This document shows, in pieces, positions 457-55,672 of a stretch of 64,000 nucleotides of DNA. A model generated the notes under the pieces. It was given only the letters and a program-made list of their open reading frames with translations. It ran no database searches and was not told where the DNA came from. The stretch's first letter is position 1, and each line of letters opens with the position of its first letter. The position numbers and the translations under genes are program-made. The DNA is from Candidatus Omnitrophota bacterium (GTDB lineage Bacteria; Omnitrophota; Gorgyraeia; Aquiviventales; Aquiviventaceae): NCBI GenBank assembly GCA_016180575.1, contig JACPAY010000001.1:64857-128856 (forward strand), written 5' to 3'.

Positions 457-1288
457 CGCTGGACACCCCAACGAGGCAGATCCCCGCATCACCGGCGGAG
501 GCGATCAGCGCCTCGCGCTCCAGGAGGATCGTGGTACCCGCCTCGACCGCCAGGCAGGAGACGCCGGCCTCCTTGAGCGTGGCGAGCGTGTCGGGGCCGA
601 TGACCGGCAGGTCGAAGCGCCGGTCCTGGCGGGGGGCGGCCGCCTTCACGACGACGAGCCCATCGCCTGCCAGCGCGTGCGCCCGCCGGATGGCGGCGTC
701 GGTGCCCTCCAGCGCCTCCACCGCCACCACCACGCGGTCTTTCACGACCACCGTCTGCCCGACGTCAAGCGCGGCGAGGGCGCGCGCGGCGCGCAACCCC
801 ACGGCGATGTCTTCCTGTTGGGCCGCCGTCGGCCCCGCGGAGGTCAAGGGACCTTCGGGACAGAGGGCGGCGCGGAGGAACGTGGAGGAATCGAGCAGGG
901 TGATGCCGGCGTGGGCCAGCCGCTGGCCGACCGCGCCCAGCAGCGCCCCGGCTGAGAAGTCGGGGGCCTGTCGCAGCACCTCGCGGAGGTCCGCGTCGAA
1001 GGCCGCGGGCTTGCCGAGGAGCACCGCCTTGGTCACCTTGCCGGCCATGATCGCCTCGCGCACGCCGTGCGCCTTGAGGCGCTCGAGGAGCCGCGCGAGC
1101 TGGCCGACCGGGAGCTCCTCATAGGCATCGACCTCCCCGGCGAGGGCGGGGTCCGCCCACCCCTGGATGCCGACGGCGATGACGCGCCGGCCCTGGCGCT
1201 TCGCCTCCCGGGCGACATGGAACGGAAATGACCCCGCCCCGGCAATCAGTCCAAGCACCCGTCCGGTATCTGATACCTTTTTAGACAT
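440..1288 (-). CDS. lpxI: UDP-2,3-diacylglucosamine pyrophosphatase LpxI (DUF1009)
   Basis: 282-aa ORF with an LGLIAGAGSFP N-terminus and an RRFDLPVIGPDT region typical of LpxI. It lies directly downstream of lpxA. ATG 1288 sits in the loop of repeat A1, so GTG at 1258 (MLGLIAG...) is an alternative start. Confidence 0.8.
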   Translation of the reverse strand: MSKKVSDTGRVLGLIAGAGSFPFHVAREAKRQGRRVIAVGIQGWADPALAGEVDAYEELPVGQLARLLERLKAHGVREAIMAGKVTKAVLLGKPAAFDADLREVLRQAPDFSAGALLGAVGQRLAHAGITLLDSSTFLRAALCPEGPLTSAGPTAAQQEDIAVGLRAARALAALDVGQTVVVKDRVVVAVEALEGTDAAIRRAHALAGDGLVVVKAAAPRQDRRFDLPVIGPDTLATLKEAGVSCLAVEAGTTILLEREALIASAGDAGICLVGVSSDDPHP

Positions 1289-1310
1289 CGGAAATGGTAT
1301 CAGATACCGG
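1263..1310. repeat. Family A palindromic pair, copy A1
   Basis: CCGGTATCTGATACC (1263-1277), an 18-nt spacer, then GGTATCAGATACCGG (1296-1310). Perfect 15-bp inverted repeat at the lpxA/lpxI junction. Confidence 0.9.
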
Positions 1311-4033: not shown

Positions 4034-6344
4034 AGAAACTCCGGCTGATGTTGAAGTGCACCTGCAGCTCGCGTTCCTCGCCGGGATCCAGGTCGCTGAC
4101 GGGCACCCCCAGATCGAGCCGCAGCGGCCCGATGGGCGTGTTCACGCGCACCCCCGCCCCCGCGCCCGCCTTGAACGACTCGCCGAACTCCTTGACGCGC
4201 CGCCAGACGTTGCCGACGTCCAGGAAGACCGATCCCCGGAGGATCGGCCGGCCGCGCTCGTCTTTCAGCAGCGTCACGACCTCCTCCAGCGTCCCCACGA
4301 GCAGCGCCTCGCCGCCGATGGGGTCGTTGGACGCCGGGTCGCGCGGTCCCACGCGCCGCTCCTCGAAGCCCCGGATGGTGCCGGAGCCGCCGCCGAAGAA
4401 CCGCTCGAAGATGGGGACCTCCGACGTGCCCGAATAGGCGTCGACGATCCCGGCGCGGAGGCGGGACTCGAACACCAGGCGGTCCCAGTGGGGGAGGTAG
4501 TGGCTCCCCCCCGCCTGCCACCGGTAGAAGTCCTTGTCGGCCCCGAAGAGCCCGCCCGCCAGATCGGCCGAGCTGAACAGGAACAGGCCGCGGGTCGGGT
4601 CAAAACGGTTGTCCCGATGGTCCCAGGAGATCCCGAGGCCCGCGACGCTGATGGTGTTGCGCCCCTGCTCGGCCTTCAGGTCAGCCGAGGCCTCGGTCAC
4701 CACGTCGGAGATCTCGGTGCGGTAGAGCTGGTAGCTGAGGCTCCCCAGCAGGCCGTCGATGAACTCCCGGCCAAGCCGCAGCCCCGCCCCGCGCTGCTCC
4801 TCCTCGAACGCGAGGCCCAGGTTGCGGCTGCGCAACCGGGTGCGGTTGTACGCGTCGATGCCGAGCGACACCGGGTGGCCGAAGATCCACGGCTCGGTGA
4901 ACGACACGTCGAAGAACCGCCGGACGGTGCCGACCTCCACCCGGAAGCGGAGGTCCTGCCCCGCGCCCGTGAATGTCGGGAAGTTCCGCCAGTCGAAGTT
5001 GCGCTGCTCGAGCTCCACGAGGCCGACGAGGCGATCCACCGAGGAGAACCCGCCGCCGAAGCTGAAGCTGCCGGTCTTGGCCTCCTTGACCTTGACGACC
5101 AGATCCTCGCGGTCGGGCGTCTCGGTCGGCTCCGTCTCCACGCTGACCTCTTCGAAGTACCCCAGGTTGTAGAGCCGGTCGATGGACTTGCGGATCGCAG
5201 CACCGTCGAACCGCTCGCCGGGATAGGCCCGGAGCTCCCGGCGCACGACGACGTCCTTGGTCCGCAGGTTGCCCCGGACCTCGACGCGGTTGATGGACAC
5301 GAGCTCATTCTCGGCGATGCGGTAGGTCAGGTTCACGCGCTTCGTCGCGTCGTCCAGCTGCGGCTCCGGGACGACCTCCGCGTGGATGTAGCCCCGGTCG
5401 CCGTAGTATTGCTTGATGCCCCGCAGGTCCTCCTGCAGCGCCTCCTGGCTGTACACCGCCCCCGGCTTGAGCGTGATGGCCTGCCGGATCTCGCGCTCCG
5501 GAAAGAGCACGGTGCCGGTCAGCGCCACCTGGCCGACCCGATGCTGCAGCCCCTCCGTGATCTTCAGATGGACATAGAGCCCGCGCCCGGCGGCGTCCCG
5601 GTAGACCTCCTGGGTGGCGGCGACGTCCTGGTAGCCGTGCTTCCGGTAGAAGGCCCGCACCCGCTCGAGGTCCTCCTCGAGCACCTGCTCGTTGTAGACC
5701 CCGGAGCGGAACCAGCGCCGGCGCTTCGTCTTGAGCAGCTTCCGGATCCGTCGGTCCGGGAAGGCCTGGTTGCCCTCCACCAGGACGCCGGCGATCCGCA
5801 TGCGGGTCCCCTCCTCGACCAGCAGATAGATGGTCGCCGTGTTGGCTACCTCATCGAGCTGGACGCGCGAGGCGATCTCGCTCTGCGAAAACCCCTTGCG
5901 CGCGTACTCCGCCTTCAGCTGATCGATCCCCTCCTTGACCCTCCGGGGGTCGTACAGCTCGCCCGGACCGACGCCGAACAGCTCAAGGAGCTTGGGCTTG
6001 CCCAGCGCCCGGTTGCCCTCCACCTCGACGGCTGACACCGTCGGCTTCTCGGTGACGACGAACACGAGGCGCAGCCCCTCGGGCGTCTGCTCGACATCGG
6101 CCCGGACGTCGGTGAAGTAGCCGAGCGCGAAGAGGCGCCGGATGTCTTCGCTGACGATCGCGTTCTGATAGGGCGAGCCCGGCTTCGTCCGGACGCGCGC
6201 CAGGACGGTTTCCTTGGCGACCGTCTTCGCGCCGCGGAGCTCCACCGCGACGACCGTTTCGCCCTCCTGGGCGAAGCTGGGGGACGCCGCGAGGCCCATG
6301 CCGCAGAGGAGCAGGGCCAGGCAGCTGCCAGCGGAGCGGCTCAT
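4032..6344 (-). CDS. bamA: outer membrane protein assembly factor BamA
   Basis: 770 aa. Signal peptide (..ASPSFAQEG), POTRA-like N-terminal repeats and a C-terminal beta-barrel ending ..HFNISRSF. Confidence 0.93.
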   Translation of the reverse strand: MSRSAGSCLALLLCGMGLAASPSFAQEGETVVAVELRGAKTVAKETVLARVRTKPGSPYQNAIVSEDIRRLFALGYFTDVRADVEQTPEGLRLVFVVTEKPTVSAVEVEGNRALGKPKLLELFGVGPGELYDPRRVKEGIDQLKAEYARKGFSQSEIASRVQLDEVANTATIYLLVEEGTRMRIAGVLVEGNQAFPDRRIRKLLKTKRRRWFRSGVYNEQVLEEDLERVRAFYRKHGYQDVAATQEVYRDAAGRGLYVHLKITEGLQHRVGQVALTGTVLFPEREIRQAITLKPGAVYSQEALQEDLRGIKQYYGDRGYIHAEVVPEPQLDDATKRVNLTYRIAENELVSINRVEVRGNLRTKDVVVRRELRAYPGERFDGAAIRKSIDRLYNLGYFEEVSVETEPTETPDREDLVVKVKEAKTGSFSFGGGFSSVDRLVGLVELEQRNFDWRNFPTFTGAGQDLRFRVEVGTVRRFFDVSFTEPWIFGHPVSLGIDAYNRTRLRSRNLGLAFEEEQRGAGLRLGREFIDGLLGSLSYQLYRTEISDVVTEASADLKAEQGRNTISVAGLGISWDHRDNRFDPTRGLFLFSSADLAGGLFGADKDFYRWQAGGSHYLPHWDRLVFESRLRAGIVDAYSGTSEVPIFERFFGGGSGTIRGFEERRVGPRDPASNDPIGGEALLVGTLEEVVTLLKDERGRPILRGSVFLDVGNVWRRVKEFGESFKAGAGAGVRVNTPIGPLRLDLGVPVSDLDPGEERELQVHFNISRSF

Positions 6345-13196: not shown

Positions 13197-13267
13197 CTGG
13201 GGAGCCAGGACTCGAACCTGGACGTGGAGCTTCAAAGGCTCCTGTGCTGCCGTTACACTACTCCCCA
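13197..13267 (-). tRNA. tRNA-Gln (anticodon UUG)
   Basis: Hand-folded cloverleaf: UGGGGAG/CUCCCCA acceptor stem (U1-A72, as in Gln tRNAs), GUGU/GCAC D stem, GGAGC-CUUUGAA-GCUCC anticodon arm and CCAGG-UUCGAGU-CCUGG T arm. The discriminator is G and CCA is not encoded. Ends are good to about 1-2 nt. Confidence 0.9.
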
Positions 13268-14161
13268 TCGCACAGACACCTTCGAAGCCGGCTCACCGCG
13301 CCAGGTCTGCACCACCTCGACGCGCCAGGGATGCCGGCGCAGCGACCCGGCGACGGCCTCCGCCTGGGCCGCGTCGCGGCAGAGGCCGAAGACCGCGGGC
13401 CCGCTGCCGGAGACAGAAACCCCCTCACAGCCAAGACGGCTCAGAGAAGACTGGATGGTCGCAATGACAGGGCAACGCCGGATCGCTATAGGTTGAAGAT
13501 CGTTCCGTAATCCCTTAGCGAGCTCGCCGAGCGAGCCGTTGCGTAAGGCGTGCGTCACCATGCTAATCGAGGAGGGGGGGGCTGTCAAGCTGATTTCCAG
13601 CGCCGCCTCCTGATCCCAGGCCGCGAAGATATCCTTCGTGGTCAGGCGATCCGGCGGCACCGCCAGGACATGGGCCAGCGGCCGCACGCCCGCCAGGGGC
13701 TCGCATCGCTCCCCCCGGCCCCGCCCGATCGCAAACGGGGCCTCGCCAAGAAAGAAGGCGACGTCGGACCCCACGCCCGCGCCAAGCTCGGCGAGCCTGC
13801 CGGGGGGCCATCGGAGATCCCAGAGCGCGTTGAGGCCGAGGAGCGCTGCGGCCGCGTCGGAGGAGCCGCCCCCCAGTCCGGCTGCGATGGGGATGCGTTT
13901 GGCAAGATGGATGCGGGCCCCGCGCGTCAGGCCGCTGGCCTGCTGCAGCGCCCTCGCCGCGCGCAGGACGAGGTTGTCCTCGCCGCAGGAAAGCGCCGGC
14001 TCCGTGCAGGTGAGCGCCAGCTCCCCGTGCGGCTCGAAGGCCAGCTCATCACACAGGTCGATCCGCTCGAAGAGCGTTTCGATCTCGTGGTAGCCGTCAG
14101 CTCGTCGCCCGACCACGCGGAGCGACAGGTTCAGTTTGGCAGGTGCGGACAGGCGTATCAT
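13253..14161 (-). CDS. ispE: 4-diphosphocytidyl-2-C-methyl-D-erythritol kinase
   Basis: 302 aa with PAKLNL.L.V and the GHMP kinase loop PIAAGLGGGSSDAAA. The last 15 nt overlap the 5' end of tRNA-Gln. Confidence 0.9.
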   Translation of the reverse strand: MIRLSAPAKLNLSLRVVGRRADGYHEIETLFERIDLCDELAFEPHGELALTCTEPALSCGEDNLVLRAARALQQASGLTRGARIHLAKRIPIAAGLGGGSSDAAAALLGLNALWDLRWPPGRLAELGAGVGSDVAFFLGEAPFAIGRGRGERCEPLAGVRPLAHVLAVPPDRLTTKDIFAAWDQEAALEISLTAPPSSISMVTHALRNGSLGELAKGLRNDLQPIAIRRCPVIATIQSSLSRLGCEGVSVSGSGPAVFGLCRDAAQAEAVAGSLRRHPWRVEVVQTWRGEPASKVSVRWGVV

Positions 14162-18542: not shown

Positions 18543-20132
18543 ATGTTCAAGCGGTTGATTGTTTCGCACCGGATGCGCCGGCGCGTCAGCTGGCTCATCG
18601 CGGCCATCCTCATCCTGCCCTTCATCTTCTTCTTCCACGCCACCGGCCGAGCGCCGTCCCGCGGTCCGGGCGGGACGGCCGGGATCGTCTTCGGCAAGCC
18701 CATCGACTGGGACACGTTCCAGGACGAGCGGCGCTCGGTCCAGCGCCAGTTCGAAGAGCAGTTTGCCGCCCAGTTCGACGCGCTGGGCGAGCTGCTGCAG
18801 CCGATGATCACCGGGGCCGCCTGGGACCGCCTCATCGTGCTCGAAGAAGCCCGCCGGAGGCGGCTGCAGGTGGATGACGCGGAGGTGGCGGCATCCATCC
18901 GGCAGTTGCCCGAGCTCCAGGAGGAGGGCCGGTTCCATCCTGAGCGGTACCATCGGCTCCTGCAGCTTTCCGGGACCACCCCGCAGGCGTTCGAATCACG
19001 GATCCGCCGGGGCCTGCTCATCGAGAAGCTCGTCAGCTCCATCCGGAACGCGGTGACGGTCAGCGACGAGGAGGTGCGCGCCGCCTACCGCAAGGCGCGC
19101 GAGGCTCGCACCGCGTCGCTCGTCCTCTTCGATCCCGCCGCGGCCGCCGAGGAGGCCGCCGCAGCGCTCACCGAGGAGGAGCTGCGCGCCGCCTACGGCG
19201 CCCAGCTTGACACGCTGCGGGTCCCCGAGCAGCTGCGCCTCGAGTACGCCGGGCTCACGCGCGAGGAGATGAGCGCCTCGCTCCAGCTCACCGACGAGGA
19301 CATCCGCGGATTCTACGACACCCACCCGGACCAGTTTGCCCGGAGCGACGGGACGCTGAAGCCCTATGAGGAGGTCCGGGAGGAGGCCCGCCGGCAGCTC
19401 CTGGAGGAGCGGGCGCGCCAGCGGCTGGCCACGCTTGCCGTGGACCTGGAGGAGGACCTCAAGGTCCCGCTCCGGTTCGAAGAGATCATCGCGGCGCGAG
19501 GGCTCTCGCGGCACGCGGCCGGCCCGTTTCCCGCCGGGGCGTCCCACGCGGCCGGCGTGCCGGACCCGGCGATCCTCCAGGCAACCGAGGGGCTGGCCGA
19601 GGGCCGGGTGAGCGGCGTGATTGACACGGGCAGCGCCGTGTATCTTGCCCGGATCACGCAGCGCCTCCCGCCCCGCCTGCCGCCGTTCGAGGAGGCGCGC
19701 GGCGAGGTGCGCTCGACGCTGATCAGGGAGCGCGCGCGGGCCAAGGTCCGGGCGGATGCCGAGGCGTTCCGGAACCGAGTGGCGAATGAGCCGAGGCTCC
19801 GCTTTGAAGAAGCGGCCCTGGCGGCGGGCATCGCCCCCATGCCGGTGGAGGTGCGCCGGGGCCAGCCCTTCGACCCCATCGGCTACCAGGAAGCGCTCAA
19901 CGAGGCGGCCTTCGCGGTCCCGCTGGGCGGCCTCACCGAGGTGTTCGACACCCCGCGCGGGTTCGCCCTCCTCCGGCCGGAAACGCACCTGCCAGCGGAT
20001 GAGTCCCTGTTCGCCGAGGAGGCCCAGACCTTCCGGCCGCAGGTGGAAACCGAACGGCGCAACGCCCGCTTGGCGGAGTGGCTGGAGGAGGTCCGGGCCC
20101 GCGCGAAGCTGCGCAGCTTCGTGGAGGACTAG
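18543..20132 (+). CDS. PpiD/SurA-N-like periplasmic chaperone (peptidyl-prolyl isomerase-like)
   Basis: 529 aa. N-terminal membrane anchor (VSWLIAAILILPFIFFF), a SurA-N-like helical region and a parvulin-like region near the C-terminus. The assignment rests on general architecture only. Confidence 0.6.
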   Translation: MFKRLIVSHRMRRRVSWLIAAILILPFIFFFHATGRAPSRGPGGTAGIVFGKPIDWDTFQDERRSVQRQFEEQFAAQFDALGELLQPMITGAAWDRLIVLEEARRRRLQVDDAEVAASIRQLPELQEEGRFHPERYHRLLQLSGTTPQAFESRIRRGLLIEKLVSSIRNAVTVSDEEVRAAYRKAREARTASLVLFDPAAAAEEAAAALTEEELRAAYGAQLDTLRVPEQLRLEYAGLTREEMSASLQLTDEDIRGFYDTHPDQFARSDGTLKPYEEVREEARRQLLEERARQRLATLAVDLEEDLKVPLRFEEIIAARGLSRHAAGPFPAGASHAAGVPDPAILQATEGLAEGRVSGVIDTGSAVYLARITQRLPPRLPPFEEARGEVRSTLIRERARAKVRADAEAFRNRVANEPRLRFEEAALAAGIAPMPVEVRRGQPFDPIGYQEALNEAAFAVPLGGLTEVFDTPRGFALLRPETHLPADESLFAEEAQTFRPQVETERRNARLAEWLEEVRARAKLRSFVED

Positions 20133-20479
20133 AGCGCGGCCGACCAGGTGTGGTCGGAGAAGTCGAACGGCTTGGTGACGTAGCCGGCCGCCCCGAGGAA
20201 GTACGCCTCGCGGCGCAGCTCATCCCGGTCGAGGGCCGTCACCATGATGATCCGCGCCGTCGGGTGGAGCGCCCTGACGCGCTTGAGGAGCTCAAGCCCG
20301 GAGAGGCCGGGCAACAGGATGTCGAGCAGGATGACGTCCGGCGAGGTACCGGCTTGGAGCCGCTCCAGCGCCTCCTCCGCGCTGAAGGCCGACGCGACCG
20401 CGAAGCCCTTGGCGCTGAAGAACTGCTCGAGGCAGTCGCAGATATCGCGCTCGTCCTCCACGATGAGCATCTGCCGCAT
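20129..20479 (-). CDS. single-domain response regulator (CheY-like receiver)
   Basis: 116 aa: MLIVEDE..., LLDILLPGLSGLELL, IIMVTA and GYVTKPF. Confidence 0.85.
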   Translation of the reverse strand: MRQMLIVEDERDICDCLEQFFSAKGFAVASAFSAEEALERLQAGTSPDVILLDILLPGLSGLELLKRVRALHPTARIIMVTALDRDELRREAYFLGAAGYVTKPFDFSDHTWSAAL

Positions 20480-20492
20480 CCGCTACTCCTCC

Positions 20493-20531
20493 CCGGTATC
20501 AGATACCAAAGCGAGTTTGGTATCTGATACC
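20493..20531. repeat. Family A palindromic pair, copy A2
   Basis: CCGGTATCAGATACCAAA-gcgag-TTTGGTATCTGATACC. 16-bp stem and 5-nt loop, immediately upstream of the SD of the CheY-like gene. Confidence 0.9.
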
Positions 20532-20695
20532 AAAATGGGCTGCTGAAGCCTTCGCTTCGGCAGCCCACCCTTCCGGTGCGACGCACCGGACGCGCGGCTT
20601 TGCGTCCCCCGCTCACGCGGGGTTTGCCTTTCTCGGCGTCCGCGTTGTCTGGTTATAGTCTGCCTGATGCCGGGCGGGATTGGCAAGGGGCGGGG

Positions 20696-21157: not shown

Positions 21158-22407
21158 GGCGCCCGCAGCTCCGGATAGAGCGGGAACCGGTCCGCCAGCG
21201 CCGCGACCTTGCGCGCCACGTCGGACGGGGCGGCCGGGTCGCCGCGGCGCGTGAGCGTTTCGTCGATGAGCTCGGCGACGGTGCGCATCTCCGCTTCCCG
21301 CATCCCCCGGGTGGTGAGCGCTGGGCTGCCGAGGCGGATTCCACTGGCCTTGCCGGGGGGGAGCGGGTCGAAGGGGATGGCGTTCTTGTTGACGGTGATG
21401 CGGGCCTGCCCGAGGAGCTCCTGCGCTTCCTTCCCGGTGAGCCCCTTCGGCGTCAGGTCCACGAGCAGGAGGTGGTTATCGGTGCCGCCGGAGACGATGC
21501 GGTAGCCGCGCTCGGCAAGCGCCGCCGCCAGCGCCCGCGCGTTGGCCACGACCTGCCGCTGGTAGGCCCGGAACGCGGGCGCCGCCGCTTCCTTGAAGCA
21601 GACCGCCTTCGCGGCGATGACGTGCATGAGCGGCCCGCCCTGGTTGCCGGGGAAGTTCGCCGAGTCGATCGCTTTCGCGTGGGTGCTCCGGCAGAGGATG
21701 AACCCGCCGCGCGGCCCGCGCAGCGTCTTGTGCGTCGTGGAAGTCACAAACTCGGCGTGGGGAACCGGATTGGGGTAGACGCCGGCGGCCACGAGCCCCG
21801 CGAAGTGGGCCATGTCGACGAGCAGGAGCGCCCCGACCGCGTCGGCGATCTTGCGGAAGCGCGGGAAGTCCAGCGTCCGCGGGTGGGCGGAGTAGCCCGC
21901 GAGGATGAGCTTCGGCTTGTGCTCCCGGGCCAGCGCCTCCACCGCATCGTAGTCGATCTGCTCGGTGTCCCGGCTGACGCCGTACGGCACGATGGTGAAG
22001 AACCGGCCGGAGAAGTTCTTCGGGTGGCCGTGCGAGAGATGGCCGCCGTGCGCCAGGCTCATCGCGAGGATGGTGTCGCCCGGCTGGAGCGTGGCGTAGA
22101 AGACGGTGATGTTGGCCTGGGTGCCGGAGTGCGGCTGGACGTTTGCGTGCTCCGCGCCGAAGAGTGATTTGACCCGCTCGATGGCCAGGCGCTCCGCCAC
22201 GTCGACGAACTCGCAGCCGCCGTACCACCGCGCGCCGGGGTAGCCCTCGGCGTACTTGTTGGTCAGGATGGAGCCTTGCGCCTCCAGGACGGCCAGGCTC
22301 GTGAAGTTCTCCGACGCGATCAGCTCCAGGTGCTCGCGCTGGCGCTGCAGCTCGCGCTGGATCGCGTCCGCGATCTCAGGATCCACTGCCCGCAGATGTG
22401 ACATCAT
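21154..22407 (-). CDS. glyA: serine hydroxymethyltransferase
   Basis: 417 aa with [21 protein letters not shown] and [14 protein letters not shown]. Confidence 0.96.
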
Positions 22408-22964
22408 GCACCACCTTTCAAAGTACCGGGTACTTTTCCCGCTTTGGGAAGTACGCGGTACTTTTTCTCGAGGGCGGCGATCTGCTTCACGCGGCGCTCA
22501 TGCCGCCCGCCCGACTCGAAGGGGGTCGCGAGCCACACCTCCGTGATGCGCCTGGCCCGCGCCTCGCTCAGCTTCTCCGCCCCCAGCACGAGGATGTTCG
22601 CGTCGTTGTGGCTGCGGCTGCGCTCCGCATCGAAGGGATCATGGCAGACCGCCGCGCGGATGCCCGGCACCTTGTTCGCCGCGATGGCGATCCCGATCCC
22701 GGACTTGCACAGCAGGATGCCCCGGTCGAACGCCCCCTGCGCCACCGCCGCGGCGACCCGGCCGCCGATCGCCGGATAGTCGCACGGCGCCGCGGAATGG
22801 GTGCCCAGGTCCGCCACCTCCAGCCCCCTCGCCCTCAGCAGCGCCACCAGCTTCGCCTTGAGCTGGAAGCCGCCGTGGTCCGCGCCGACCGCGACCCGAA
22901 CAGGTCCGGTATCAGATACCTTCGAGTGTCTGGATATCTTCTTTTGGTATCTGATACCGGTCAT
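22404..22964 (-). CDS. rpiB: ribose-5-phosphate isomerase B with repeat-encoded N- and C-terminal extensions
   Basis: 186 aa. The core is [13 protein letters not shown]...[20 protein letters not shown]...[13 protein letters not shown]. The only in-frame start is ATG 22964 (ATGA overlap), so repeat A3 is translated as [21 protein letters not shown]. The 3' end reads through repeat B2. Confidence 0.9.
22420..22466. repeat. Family B hairpin repeat, copy B2 (inside the rpiB 3' coding end)
   Basis: AAAGTACCGGGTACTTTTCCCGCTTTGGGAAGTACGCGGTACTTTTT. It is read through as ..[20 protein letters not shown]. Confidence 0.9.
22906..22960. repeat. Family A palindromic pair, copy A3 (translated as the rpiB N-terminus)
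   Basis: CCGGTATCAGATACC (22906-22920), a 25-nt spacer, then GGTATCTGATACCGG (22946-22960). Confidence 0.9.
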
Positions 22965-23442: not shown

Positions 23443-23491
23443 GAGACAGGAGACAAGAGACGGGAGACAGGTGGGGGCTGTCTCCTGTCTC
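23443..23491. repeat. Family C heptamer palindrome at the tsaC/ywlE-like junction
   Basis: GAGACAG GAGACAA GAGACGG GAGACAG gtggggg CTGTCTC CTGTCTC. The tsaC stop lies in the last unit. Confidence 0.9.
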
Positions 23492-33618: not shown

Positions 33619-34910
33619 TTGAGGCCCACCCGCTTGAAAATCCGGTCCACATGCTTCAGGTGCGGCGCGGGGCTGAGGCAGCGCCGCACCGCCGCCGGCG
33701 TGAGGCGGGCGCGGACGGCCGGATCGCGCAGCAGGACGTCCCCGAACTCCCCGCCGTTGCGCCACGCCGACAGCGCGGCGCGCTGCACGAGCGTGTAGGC
33801 CCGGGTGCGGGTCAGGCCCCGCCGCATCAGCGCCAGCAGCACCTGGCCGGAGTAGGTCACCCCGCGCGTGCTCTCCAGGTTGGCGCGCATCCGGTCCGGA
33901 TGGACGATGAGCCCGCGCACCACCTCCGTCATCGTCCGCAGCATGTAGTCCAGGGTGATGGCCGCGTCGGGCAGGATGACGCGCTCGACCGAGGAGTGGC
34001 TGATGTCCCGCTCATGCCAGAGCGCGATGTTCTCCATGGCGGCCACGGCGTAGCCGCGCAGGAGCCGGCTCAGGCCGGCGACCCGCTCGCAGACGACGGG
34101 GTTCCTCTTGTGCGGCATCGCGGAGGAGCCCTTCTGGCCCCGCCCGAACGGCTCCTCGACCTCGCGCACCTCGGTGCGCGCCAGGTGCCGCAGCTCCGTC
34201 GCCAGCTGCTCCAGGCTGCCGCCGATGAGCGCCAGCGTCGAAACGTAGGCGGCGTGCAGGTCGCGCTGGAGGATCTGCGTCGAGATCGGCGCCGGGGCGA
34301 GGCCGAGCCGGCGGCACACCTGGCGCTCCACGGCCGGGTCCACGTTGGCGAACGTCCCGACGGCGCCCGACACCTTCCCGACGCTCACGGCGCGGCGCTC
34401 GCGCGAGAGGCGCTCGAGGTGCCGGGCGAACTGGTCGTAGAACATCGCGAGCTTCAGGCCGAAGGTGGTCGGCTCGGCGTGCACGCCGTGGGTGCGGCCG
34501 ATCATGAGCGTACGCTTGTGCCGGCGGGCCTTGGCCGCGAGCGCCCGGAGCAGCCCGCGGAGGTCCTGCAGGAGCAGGTCCGTCGCCTCGCGCAGCAGGA
34601 CGGCGAGCGAGGTATCGAGGATATCGCTTGAGGTGAGGCCGAAGTGGAGATAGCGGCCGTCAGGGCCGACGCGCGATTCGAGCGTCTCGATGAACGCGAT
34701 GACGTCGTGGCGCGTGCGGGCTTCCCGCTGCTGGATGGCGGCGGCGTCGACGCGGGCCTTGCGGCGGATCGCCTGGACCGCCCGCCGGGGCACAAGGCCC
34801 GCTGCGGCCTGCGCCTCCAGCACCTGCAACTCCACCTCCAGCATGACCTGGAGCCGGTGTGTTTCGCTCCAGACAGCGCCCATCGCCGGAAGGGTGTAGC
34901 GGGGGATCAT
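33615..34910 (-). CDS. purB: adenylosuccinate lyase
   Basis: 431 aa from ATG 34910: [16 protein letters not shown], plus the [10 protein letters not shown] signature. The upstream part of the track ORF is repeat A4 read-through. Confidence 0.95.
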
Positions 34911-34920
34911 CGCCAGCCTC

Positions 34921-34961
34921 CCGGTATCAGATACCAATCGGAAAATGGTATCTGATACCGG
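34921..34961. repeat. Family A palindromic pair, copy A4
   Basis: CCGGTATCAGATACC-aatcggaaaat-GGTATCTGATACCGG in the purB 5' leader, abutting the SD GGGAGG. Confidence 0.9.
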
Positions 34962-50363: not shown

Positions 50364-51420
50364 GCATCAGCTCGGCGATCGCCCGCAGCTCCGCGCGGAT
50401 CACGCCCCGTTCGGTCACAAGGCCCGTGAGATACTCCGCCGGCGTCACGTCGAAGGCCCAGTTGCGCACGCGCGAGCCGTCAGGCGAGATGCGAATCCGG
50501 GCGGGCCGCCCCTCCGCGGTGAGGCCCTCGGTCCAGACCACCTCGTCATCCGCGCGCTGCTCGATCGGGATCTCATCGCCGGACGGGCAGCCGAGGTCGA
50601 TGGTGCTGGTGGGCGCGGCGACGTAGAAGGGGATGCGATGCGTCCGGGCCAGCACGGCGAGCTGGTAGGTGCCGATCTTGTTGGCGACATCCCCATTGGC
50701 CGCGATCCGGTCCGCGCCGACGAGGACGAGGTTCACCAGCCCCTGGCGCATCGCTGAGCCGGCGGCCGTGTCCGGGATCAGCGTGCAGGGCACGCCTTCC
50801 TGCGCCAGCTCCCAGGCGGTGAGCCTGGCCCCCTGGGCCCGCGGCCGCGTTTCCGTCGCGAAGACGCTGACCGCCTTCCCGTCCCGATGGGCCCGGTAGA
50901 TGGGGGCGAGCGCTGTCCCCCAGTCGGCGAAGGCGAGCCATCCGGCGTTGCAATGGGTCAGGACCGAGGCGGGCGAGGGCAGCAGGGGCTGGCCGATTTC
51001 CCCGATGCGCTCCCCGGCGCGCGCGTCCTCATCGGCGAGCGCCTGCGCCGCCTCGCCGGCGCGCGCGCGCTTCGCCGCAGGCGCGGCCGGGCCGGCCACG
51101 ACCGCCTCAATCCGCTCGATGGCGTAGAAGAGGTTCCGGGCGGTGGGGCGGGTGGCGCGCAGCGCTGAGGCGGCCCGCGCAAGCGCAGCGTCCACGGCGC
51201 CGTCCGGCGCCGCGAGGGCCGCCTGGGCCATCCCGAACCCGGCCGCCACCCCGATGGCCCCCGCGCCGCGGACCGCCATGTCGCGGATCGCCTCGGCGGT
51301 CTCCTGATAGGTCCGGAGCGAGAGAATCTCGAAGGCGAAGGGCAGCCGCCGCTGGTCGATCAGCCTGACGGTGCTCCCCTCCAGCCAGACAGTCCGATAG
51401 TGCGTGCCGTTGACTCGCAT
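50356..51420 (-). CDS. mtnA: S-methyl-5-thioribose-1-phosphate isomerase
   Basis: 354 aa with L.LIDQR.LP, RGAGAIGVAA, THCNAG.LA and VGADRIA.NGD.ANKIGTY. Confidence 0.92.
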   Translation of the reverse strand: MRVNGTHYRTVWLEGSTVRLIDQRRLPFAFEILSLRTYQETAEAIRDMAVRGAGAIGVAAGFGMAQAALAAPDGAVDAALARAASALRATRPTARNLFYAIERIEAVVAGPAAPAAKRARAGEAAQALADEDARAGERIGEIGQPLLPSPASVLTHCNAGWLAFADWGTALAPIYRAHRDGKAVSVFATETRPRAQGARLTAWELAQEGVPCTLIPDTAAGSAMRQGLVNLVLVGADRIAANGDVANKIGTYQLAVLARTHRIPFYVAAPTSTIDLGCPSGDEIPIEQRADDEVVWTEGLTAEGRPARIRISPDGSRVRNWAFDVTPAEYLTGLVTERGVIRAELRAIAELMHA

Positions 51421-51426
51421 GAAGTC

Positions 51427-51491
51427 CCGGTATCAGATACCAACCCCCGATTGGTATCAGATACCGACTTCTACTTGGTATCTGATACCGG
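51427..51491. repeat. Family A, three-unit copy A5
   Basis: Units at 51427-51441 (centre A), 51453-51465 (centre A) and 51477-51491 (centre T), between the PNP gene and mtnA. Confidence 0.9.
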
Positions 51492-55544: not shown

Positions 55545-55615
55545 AGAAGCGTCCCCGCATTGAAGTGTGGCGATCCTGCTACAATCTGACCCGCCAACTG
55601 TCTTCTTATTTCACA

Positions 55616-55672
55616 TAACTTATTGTATAACAATGAGTTACATTTGACAAATTGTCAACAGCATGGTAGGCT
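55616..55672 (+). promoter_or_regulatory. AT-rich control region: promoter TTGACA-N17-TAGGCT with two palindromic operators
   Basis: A perfect 15-bp palindrome TTGACAAATTGTCAA (55644-58) overlaps the -35 and the spacer. A near-palindrome AACTTATTGT-ATA-ACAATGAGTT (55617-39) matches at 9/10. Bases 55621-55660 are 25% G+C by hand count. Confidence 0.55.

Follow-up and report, generated by a model that had tools for sequence, protein, structure and literature searches.

What are the short palindromes that recur at gene boundaries in this Candidatus Omnitrophota genome, and to which kind of element do they belong? The question arises from a stretch of 64,000 nucleotides, which we refer to at its full length as the window, and it was pursued from there into related contigs. 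The answer is that the GGTATCWGATACC palindromes form a family of miniature mobile repeats of the REP/REPIN type that had not been described before; as a kind of bacterial selfish DNA, such repeats are already known. Judging from comparative sequence evidence, the units are very probably the REP-type repeats, mostly in head-to-head inverted doublets, of a RAYT (REP-associated tyrosine transposase) system in a Candidatus Omnitrophica lineage. REP/REPIN-RAYT systems are well studied in Proteobacteria and essentially undescribed in uncultured phyla with compact genomes, so that this case extends them to Candidatus Omnitrophica, and does so in an unusual form: a 13-nt, tag-less, near-perfect palindrome with lineage variants that carry compensatory changes.

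Five clusters of palindromic units in the window

A pattern search of the 64-kb window returned 11 exact GGTATCWGATACC units in five clusters (Table 1), against an expectation of 0.01 units in the shuffled window, and none of 100 shuffles reached 11. There were no copies with one or two mismatches in the window; the two extra matches obtained when up to three mismatches were allowed, both with three, are at chance level (4.2 expected), and neither a search for the 11-mer core nor a search for degenerate palindromes revealed further units in the window. Being rich in A+T, the palindromes stand out in DNA with a G+C content of 69%. Their central bases are complementary inside each of the five clusters, and the elements are bounded on the outside by CC..GG, with the right side of the copy at 20.5 kb as the exception. 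The spacers that separate the units are unrelated in sequence between copies.

Table 1. Putative REP elements of the window, with two neighbouring features (central bases of the units in brackets)
Feature	Position	Strand	Description
REP doublet 1 (T..A)	1263..1310		units 1265-1277 and 1296-1308, 18-nt spacer, outer CCGG flanks
REP doublet 2 (A..T)	20493..20531		units 20495-20507 and 20519-20531, 11-nt spacer
c-di-GMP-I riboswitch aptamer	20556..20638	minus	Rfam match 58.4 bits (gathering score 35); context, not a repeat
rpiB ORF	22404..22964	minus	186 aa as annotated; codons 1-20 are the REP doublet
REP doublet 3 (A..T)	22906..22960		units 22908-22920 and 22946-22958, 25-nt spacer
REP doublet 4 (A..T)	34921..34961		units 34923-34935 and 34947-34959, 11-nt spacer, CCGG flanks
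REP triplet 5 (A, A, T)	51427..51491		units 51429-51441, 51453-51465 and 51477-51489, two 11-nt spacers

All five clusters lie at gene boundaries, which is far from chance because only ~7% of the window is non-coding (P ~2e-6), a figure derived from codon log-odds gene calls that were trained on the window itself and whose start positions are approximate. That every cluster occupies a co-directional junction is uninformative, given that 65 of the 73 junctions in these gene calls are co-directional. According to NCBIfam, the flanking genes are lpxA and an lpxI-like gene, a CheY-like receiver, LMW-PTP (an LMW phosphotyrosine phosphatase) and rpiB, purB, and PNP (purine nucleoside phosphorylase) and mtnA, all on the minus strand. 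The next start codon follows 8-15 nt past the outer unit at three of the sites and lies inside or upstream of the element at the other two, and some copies extend over the opening or closing codons of an ORF.

Each junction is packed in its own way. At doublet 1, the lpxA stop codon (1300-1302, minus) is the TGA within one unit, and the ATG of the lpxI-like gene (1288, minus) lies in the spacer, from which the ORF runs across the other unit (MSKKVSDTG...); this start was picked by gene callers on four contigs, and an orthologous doublet with a longer spacer occurs in L083. At doublet 2, the minus strand carries a c-di-GMP-I aptamer immediately upstream in the sense of the transcript, followed by the doublet and then by GGGGAGGAG-N6-ATG of the CheY-like gene, so that, by the Rfam match, the doublet separates an aptamer from the Shine-Dalgarno sequence of the gene that this aptamer controls. 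Repeats of this kind can sit within riboswitch leaders. Doublet 4 is followed on the minus strand by GAGG-N6-ATG of purB (ATG at 34908-34910), and on its opposite side lie ~170 nt of non-coding DNA. At triplet 5, the PNP ORF crosses the third unit (..PVSDTK) and ends at a TAG (51471-51473) in the spacer between units 2 and 3, and the mtnA ATG (51418-51420) stands 8 nt past unit 1.

Doublet 3 immediately follows the ATGA in which the LMW-PTP stop and the rpiB start overlap. For rpiB there is a single usable start, the ATG at 22964; it shares bases with the TGA of the phosphatase gene and precedes the whole doublet. No start codon separates the doublet from the conserved RpiB core, and the 57-bp element would therefore be translated in frame ahead of that core. 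An NCBI RpiB protein from a 'Candidatus Omnitrophica bacterium' MAG (P0001) is 100% identical over 186 aa and has the same start. Together with the LpxI-like protein, RpiB is thus one of two products in which a window element is read as N-terminal protein ('VSDTG'). Among the 120 RpiB homologues listed, translated remnants of units (VSDTG, ISDIG, TGIRYQ) were seen in ~17 (~14%), with at least 8 different N-terminal configurations, and many others have plain N-termini. For genome annotation, this means that the units create artificial-looking N- or C-terminal extensions.

Most of what the original prediction had described in the window was recovered, namely the five loci of paired palindromic units, the complementary centres of partner units in 5/5 clusters, the gene assignments at the junctions, with which NCBIfam agrees, and the three strings of ribosome-binding site and ATG quoted for the CheY-like gene, purB and mtnA. 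Two of its statements need correcting in part. The stop codons of lpxA and PNP were both said to fall inside an arm, which is the case for lpxA but not for PNP, whose stop is in a spacer; and all copies were said to sit at operon junctions, which is right as to their position at gene boundaries, but the upstream neighbour of the copy at 20.5 kb is a riboswitch aptamer rather than the end of an ORF. The riboswitch and the predicted translation of two elements had been missed.

Doublets in other genomes and their transposase genes

To follow the repeat beyond the window, loci were retrieved with a pattern of two perfect units 3-33 nt apart. Species-representative genomes contained 24 such loci, mainly in one Planctomycetales-labelled MAG and in Omnitrophota MAGs, with a few unrelated singletons, and a metagenome scan added 70 more. 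Several of the metagenome contigs match parts of the window at 84-90% identity. A scan of viral contigs gave no match to the doublet pattern, and a literature search for the 13-mer and the 11-mer returned only unrelated primers.

Of 73 non-redundant doublets, 67 have complementary centres (A..T in 61, T..A in 6) and the remainder have like ones (T..T in 4, A..A in 2), a count that is unbiased because the search accepted either base at each centre. So strong a preference for A..T implies that the units have a polarity and that the dimers are mostly head-to-head, an arrangement that is also predominant among REP dimers (PMC3733652). Spacers fall into classes of 2-6, 11-12 and 17-29 nt, unit spacing overall ranges over 2-38 nt, and both these statistics and the perfection of the units are conditioned on the retrieval pattern. 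The shortest elements measure 28-30 bp and have interiors of 2-4 nt. Outer CC..GG flanks accompany 37 of the 73 doublets, and a spacer sequence is common to only a few of them (e.g., L005/L007/L019/L021/L086). Of 77 clusters in relatives, 47 lie within 30 nt of a start with good coding potential, and the upstream stop often lies within a unit or a few bases before it; this tight packing and proximity to starts is largely forced, since most junctions of the window are only -4 to +20 nt long. A recurrent inner flank, AAAATGG, yields the reading ATG-GTA-TCT-GAT-ACC.

What points to a REP system in particular is the gene that recurs beside the units. In L075, several units lie within 1.7 kb, upstream of and over the 3' end of an ORF (4436-5032) that encodes HVH and Y-x-x-x-N-P motifs and matches the Pfam family Y1_Tnp (PF01797) with an E-value of 2.5e-14. 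Its product scores 88 bits against the NCBIfam equivalog NF047646.1, 'REP-associated tyrosine transposase' (cut-off 80); scores of 88-99 bits were obtained for four proteins, and a fifth, P0205, reached 77 bits. The only PDB match of the L075 protein is 4ER8, the TnpA-REP of E. coli, at weak similarity (E 0.0025), and its homologues are labelled 'REP element-mobilizing transposase RayT' by JGI. By these sequence matches, the associated protein is a HUH/Y1 enzyme of the RAYT type and not an IS200/IS605 TnpA.

A tblastn search with the L075 protein over all retrieved sequences found homologues in L049, L081 and L034, each adjoining units; altogether, L075, L049/L097/L098, L081 and L034 carry RAYT genes that have units on one side or on both. 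These loci are among ~77 that were chosen by the repeat pattern alone, with ~150 kb of flanks. Given roughly one such gene per genome, the presence of four independent RAYT genes at a distance of a few hundred bases from units is not plausible by chance. The same tblastn approach found no RAYT gene in the 64-kb window. The RAYT-bearing contigs have a G+C content of 0.59-0.67, as compared with 0.69 in the window, and a taxon label is attached to one of them, L101, which carries a variant unit.

The unit sequence also appears to change with the transposase. We inspected the contigs of four further RAYT homologues, a small sample in which variants were picked by eye, and express their identities relative to the L075 protein. 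P0125 (72% identity) has GGTATCWGATACC doublets on both sides, P0164 (60%) is accompanied by head-to-tail runs of GTATCWGATAC, P0168 (59%) by units of the GGATCWGATCC type, and P0205 (49%, from an NCBI Candidatus Omnitrophota entry) by GGTGTCWGACACC, a GGTGTC..GACACC variant. Two further types, GATATC..GATATC and CGTATC..GATACG, were seen on loci without a RAYT gene: GATATCWGATATC units in L103, a syntenic relative of the window region, and a CGTATCWGATACG doublet in L104, a near-identical contig that reaches ~3 kb past the left edge of the window. Over all variants, the TC-W-GA centre is invariant, both partners change in 4 of the 6 symmetric position pairs, and pairing is preserved in 100% of cells. 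Within this small, hand-picked sample, the unit sequence co-varies with the RAYT lineage and keeps its dyad symmetry, and the pairs of RAYT and unit variants could serve as a specificity series on how a RAYT reads its hairpin. Dyad symmetry of this kind is predicted equally by a small single-stranded hairpin and by a dimer that binds duplex DNA. We also considered in-situ conversion of one variant into another at the PTP/rpiB junction, where the window and L103 carry different variants, and do not propose it: the insertion points are ~10 nt apart, and their coincidence is not statistically compelling.

Turnover, possible effects and alternative readings

Comparison of orthologous junctions, a check that the original prediction had called for, revealed filled and empty sites in close relatives. 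In L095, whose RpiB is 90% identical, the rpiB junction is empty, with GCATGACCGG running directly into AACTCGGGTCGCGGTC (...ATGACCGG followed by AACTCGG...), whereas in the window CAATGACCGG and ACCTGTTCGGGTCGCGGTC are separated by the element, TATCAGATACC...GGTATCTGATACCGG. The junction is likewise empty in L096 and L102 (RpiB ~85%), and L102 has zero units over 14.7 kb of synteny, including the junction between riboswitch and CheY-like gene. At that riboswitch junction, L095 retains one once-mutated unit, and doublets that differ in their spacers occupy it in the window, L031 and L052. The opposite situation is met at ~55.65 kb, where the window is empty and L040/L045 are filled by a doublet right after a promoter-like TTGACA-17-CATACT site. 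One empty site has a single CCGG where its filled counterpart has one at each end; other pairs are without CCGG. A CC^GG target or a duplicated CCGG would thus suit the first pair but not the others. Such presence/absence differences between close relatives, by insertion or loss, are what is expected of mobile elements and argue for mobility here. In practical terms, the repeats may interrupt assemblies; the contig of one relative stops 72 bp upstream of rpiB, although the junction there is empty.

Where sites are shared, the DNA around the units is 71-88% identical and their spacers have accumulated substitutions and indels, yet the units themselves have not changed. By our estimate, the chance that 26-30 nt remain without change at 12% divergence is ~0.02 per comparison, and it is far less for the pair at 71%. 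That the units are perfect while their flanks diverge implies that something maintains them, which could be either continued RAYT action, by replacement or re-insertion, or selection in the host.

By analogy with IS200/IS605 elements and with the TnpA-REP of E. coli, an HUH/Y1 enzyme with a single gene copy elsewhere in the genome would recognise the folded single-stranded unit, and would cut and rejoin DNA without long homology. Its action would spread doublets, or keep them identical, at permissive places, and in a compact, operon-rich genome these would be the few bases between a stop and the next start. Each copy would then be transcribed as part of a minus-strand operon and form a hairpin 5' of, or across, the next ribosome-binding site or start codon, where it would probably also modulate mRNA stability or translational coupling, as REPs do in E. 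coli.

In predicted RNA folds, all five window elements yield perfect stems of 15-20 bp with free energies of -25.9 to -39.8 kcal/mol (z -5.2 to -7.0). The hairpins of the doublets are followed by GG(G)A/GGAC and similar sequences and in no case by a U-tract, and a terminator scan of the transcribed strand did not call the doublets; we rejected intrinsic (Rho-independent) termination on these two grounds. In L103, a doublet (13465-13502) lies inside a c-di-GMP aptamer that still passes the Rfam threshold, with a match that spans 118 nt for a model of 80 positions. A perfect hairpin re-joins its flanks, which would explain why the elements are tolerated in the gap between aptamer and Shine-Dalgarno sequence, within the L103 aptamer and in frame at protein termini. 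REPs of E. coli are known to affect mRNA stability, processing or translational coupling, and by analogy similar effects are plausible for the present repeats.

It is conceivable, although we think it rather unlikely, that such effects have gone further and that the doublets have been co-opted as modules of gene starts and operon junctions, kept identical by RAYT. The observations behind this idea are that start codons are supplied by a spacer ATG or by the AAAATGG inner flank, that housekeeping enzymes are given N-terminal peptides (VSDTG or TGIRYQ), that elements are placed between riboswitch aptamers and ribosome-binding sites, and that units are base-perfect at orthologous junctions against 12-29% flank divergence. 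If true, RAYT would be a maintenance enzyme for a host-beneficial population of sequences and not a relic transposase.

Alternatively, the elements could primarily be selected RNA structures that punctuate operons (by offering sites to RNase III or other processing, by stabilising 3' or 5' ends, or by insulating translation), with an incidental or ancestral link to the transposase. The hairpins are strong (-26 to -40 kcal/mol, z ~-5 to -7) and units stay perfect at orthologous sites with 71-88% flank identity, but a helix requires pairing and not one exact 13-mer, and the stems are all identical, with no within-genome covariation. Similarly, 5/5 window elements span the next start codon or lie no more than 15 nt from it, and a coding start is found within 30 nt of 47/77 clusters in relatives, yet this proximity is largely forced by the short junctions (-4 to +20 nt). 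One copy, in L040, begins just behind a sigma-70-like -10 element and would there be a hairpin at the 5' terminus. Junctions that are filled in the window are without the elements in close relatives, and no replacement structure takes their place. There is, moreover, no U-tract, and the internal dyad of the unit has been preserved over lineages although a long doublet hairpin would not require it. We regard selected RNA structure as an improbable primary explanation. Even less probable, in our judgement, is that the 13-bp palindromes are double-stranded operators for a homodimeric host regulator or a nucleoid protein, paired for cooperative binding. A dimeric DNA-binding protein would give the same pattern of near-perfect palindromes with symmetric compensatory variants, and promoter-like settings do occur in unrelated taxa (TTGACA-cg-unit-tg-TATACT in L070, and the 13-mer flanking TTGACA in the Kaiserbacteria loci L018, L067 and L085). 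Independent palindromic operators would not, however, predict the strong A..T rule of the centres, unit spacing varies over 2-38 nt, and the neighbours are unrelated housekeeping genes (lpxI, CheY-like, rpiB, purB, mtnA) that form no regulon. The sites are inside operons, coding N-termini and, in L103, a riboswitch aptamer, and the gene that recurs beside the units is that of RAYT and not of a regulator. Beside the operator-like copies in other phyla (Kaiserbacteria, Clostridiales and others), too, no recurrent regulator was found. By eye, the gene next to the L018 copy resembles an ATPase.

A third possibility, a conventional cut-and-paste MITE with 15-bp terminal inverted repeats (CCGGTATCWGATACC), a DDE transposase and a CCGG target-site duplication, would agree with the outer CC..GG of 37/73 doublets and with the one empty site that has a single CCGG where the filled counterpart has one per end. 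CCGG is, however, absent from other empty sites, elements of 28-30 bp with interiors of 2-4 nt have room for the arms only, and triplets and head-to-tail runs occur. It is a Y1 transposase that recurs beside the units and not a DDE transposase, and we consider the MITE reading extremely unlikely. Another candidate, that the units act as -35/-10 elements or contain a -10 element in TACCAT, was rejected in view of unit spacing of 2-38 nt and an inner flank that is not constant. Taken together, the REP/BIME-like miniature mobile family that the original prediction had favoured is supported by units that flank RAYT genes and co-vary with the RAYT lineage and by orthologous junctions that are empty or differently filled. 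The mRNA punctuation that it had suggested would be a consequence of the repeats, whose hairpins are strong but have no terminator tails, and the duplicated operator for a dimeric regulator, which it had offered as the alternative, fares poorly, with no regulon and with copies inside coding starts and the L103 aptamer.

Relation to known REP systems

As REPs of a RAYT system, the repeats share the core features of REP/REPIN elements: a palindrome that is over-represented and extragenic, an arrangement in inverted doublets, a RAYT gene with the same repeat at its flanks, units specific to a lineage, and turnover in relatives. The REPIN/RAYT system of Pseudomonas fluorescens SBW25 (Bertels & Rainey 2011, PMC3116915; PMC3337134; PMC5581495) is alike in having over-represented, extragenic palindromic units that are mostly inverted doublets forming one long hairpin, units that flank the RAYT gene, RAYT lineages with their own unit sequences, and sites that persist at orthologous positions in related genomes. 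The Omnitrophica unit differs in being only 13-15 nt long and almost perfectly self-complementary, in occurring in a different phylum, and in copies that abut or enter coding regions. In described REPINs, furthermore, the whole doublet is copied with its spacer, whereas the spacers here are unrelated and of three length classes, and neither the window spacers nor, apart from the few that have one in common, the 73 doublets indicate that a spacer was copied along with its arms.

In the REP/BIME system of E. coli (Ton-Hoang 2012; Messing 2012, PMC3479197, PDB 4ER8), TnpA-REP is the closest relative of the associated protein and the only one with a solved structure, and the units there, too, form clusters in alternating orientation inside operons. 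REPs of E. coli are imperfect palindromes of ~35 nt with an unpaired 5' GTAG as the cleavage site (PMC3733652, PMC3479197), and most described REPs are marked by an unpaired tag, either GTAG or CGTC (PMC3733652). Neither tetranucleotide is conserved in the unit flanks of the window or of the 73 doublets, where units end in GGTA../..TACC with CC/GG outside. This missing tag has a precedent in the 'TIRtrons', RAYT-like genes that are flanked by non-GTAG inverted repeats of moderately abundant families (PMC3733652).

Measured against the GTAG/CGTC REP superfamilies (Di Nocera et al. 2013, PMC3733652), the present units are within the reported ranges of stems (5-13 bp) and loops (2-20 nt), and in both cases head-to-head dimers predominate and intragenic copies exist. 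REPs have also been reported in the PVC superphylum (PMC3733652). The REPs of that survey are mostly located downstream of coding regions, while those described here are pressed against the next start, two positions that coincide in tight operons.

Translation of palindromic repeats is likewise familiar from another system. Rickettsia palindromic elements are palindromes inserted in frame in protein-coding genes and translated as extra peptide segments; they are 100-150 bp long, CGTC-tagged and without a dedicated transposase. They are mentioned in the same survey of REPs (PMC3733652). The Omnitrophica repeats resemble them as palindromes that would be translated in frame, with the difference that here only a few N- or C-terminal codons are affected.

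c-di-GMP-I riboswitches and REP doublets

Upstream of the CheY-like receiver gene, the window carries a c-di-GMP-I riboswitch in which a REP doublet is placed between the aptamer and the Shine-Dalgarno sequence. Relatives share this riboswitch with differing numbers of REP units: L102 has none, L095 has one and L031 has a doublet. In another relative, L103, a GATATCWGATATC doublet lies within a c-di-GMP-I-GGC aptamer match of 118 nt to a model of 80 positions, so that the doublet appears to be tolerated inside the aptamer.

Coordinates of features in the window and in related or unrelated contigs (own coordinates outside the window)
Feature	Location	Strand	Remark
tRNA gene	window 13197-13267	minus	Rfam, 62.8 bits
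Single-domain CheY-like receiver gene	window 20129-20479		downstream of c-di-GMP-I aptamer
c-di-GMP-I riboswitch aptamer	window 20556-20638	minus	upstream of CheY-like gene
Hairpin GAGACGGGAGACAGG-TGGGGGC-TGTCTCCTGTCTC	window 23457-23491		stem 14 bp
A+T-rich stretch with long palindrome ACATAACTTATTGTATAACAATGAGTTACAT	window ~55570-55650
c-di-GMP-I-GGC aptamer match	L103 13410-13527
GATATCWGATATC doublet	L103 13465-13502		within aptamer match
Variant doublet CGTATCTGATACG ... CGTATCAGATACG	L104 4789-4838		T..A order; ~3 kb past window's left edge
HicB/HicA antitoxin-toxin pair	L075 3664-4163		between REP clusters, just upstream of RAYT gene
TTGACA-cg-unit-tg-TATACT	L070 1765-1810		integrase-like ORF adjoining

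A variant unit and the RAYT neighbourhood

The variant doublet on L104, a contig near-identical to the window's, is flanked by divergently called genes. Its presence suggests that the window's genome, or one near-identical to it, has a second sub-family. In L075, the block of REP clusters, HicB/HicA pair and RAYT gene is bracketed by two partial apolipoprotein N-acyltransferase-like gene copies. In some RAYT homologues of ~310 aa (P0186, P0190, P0191, P0194, P0196 and others), the Y1 transposase domain is fused to an additional domain, either Bac_DnaA_C (PF08299) or MarR/HTH.

Other palindromes and promoter-like settings

The perfect hairpin at a further minus-strand gene junction in the window is distinct from Family A, and may represent either a terminator or another family of repeats. 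After palindrome ACATAACTTATTGTATAACAATGAGTTACAT stands TTGACA-17-TAGGCT, a sigma-70-like promoter with a candidate operator, conserved in the relative L040. In L040 a REP doublet immediately follows the -10 element, which is the sole tie of this stretch to Family A; it is otherwise unrelated.

The Family A 13-mer also occurs in promoter-like settings of unrelated taxa, namely in L070 and in Kaiserbacteria (L018, L067 and L085); in the Kaiserbacteria loci TTGACA is flanked by two units with an ATG just after. These copies look like ordinary operators and may have no connection with the REP family.
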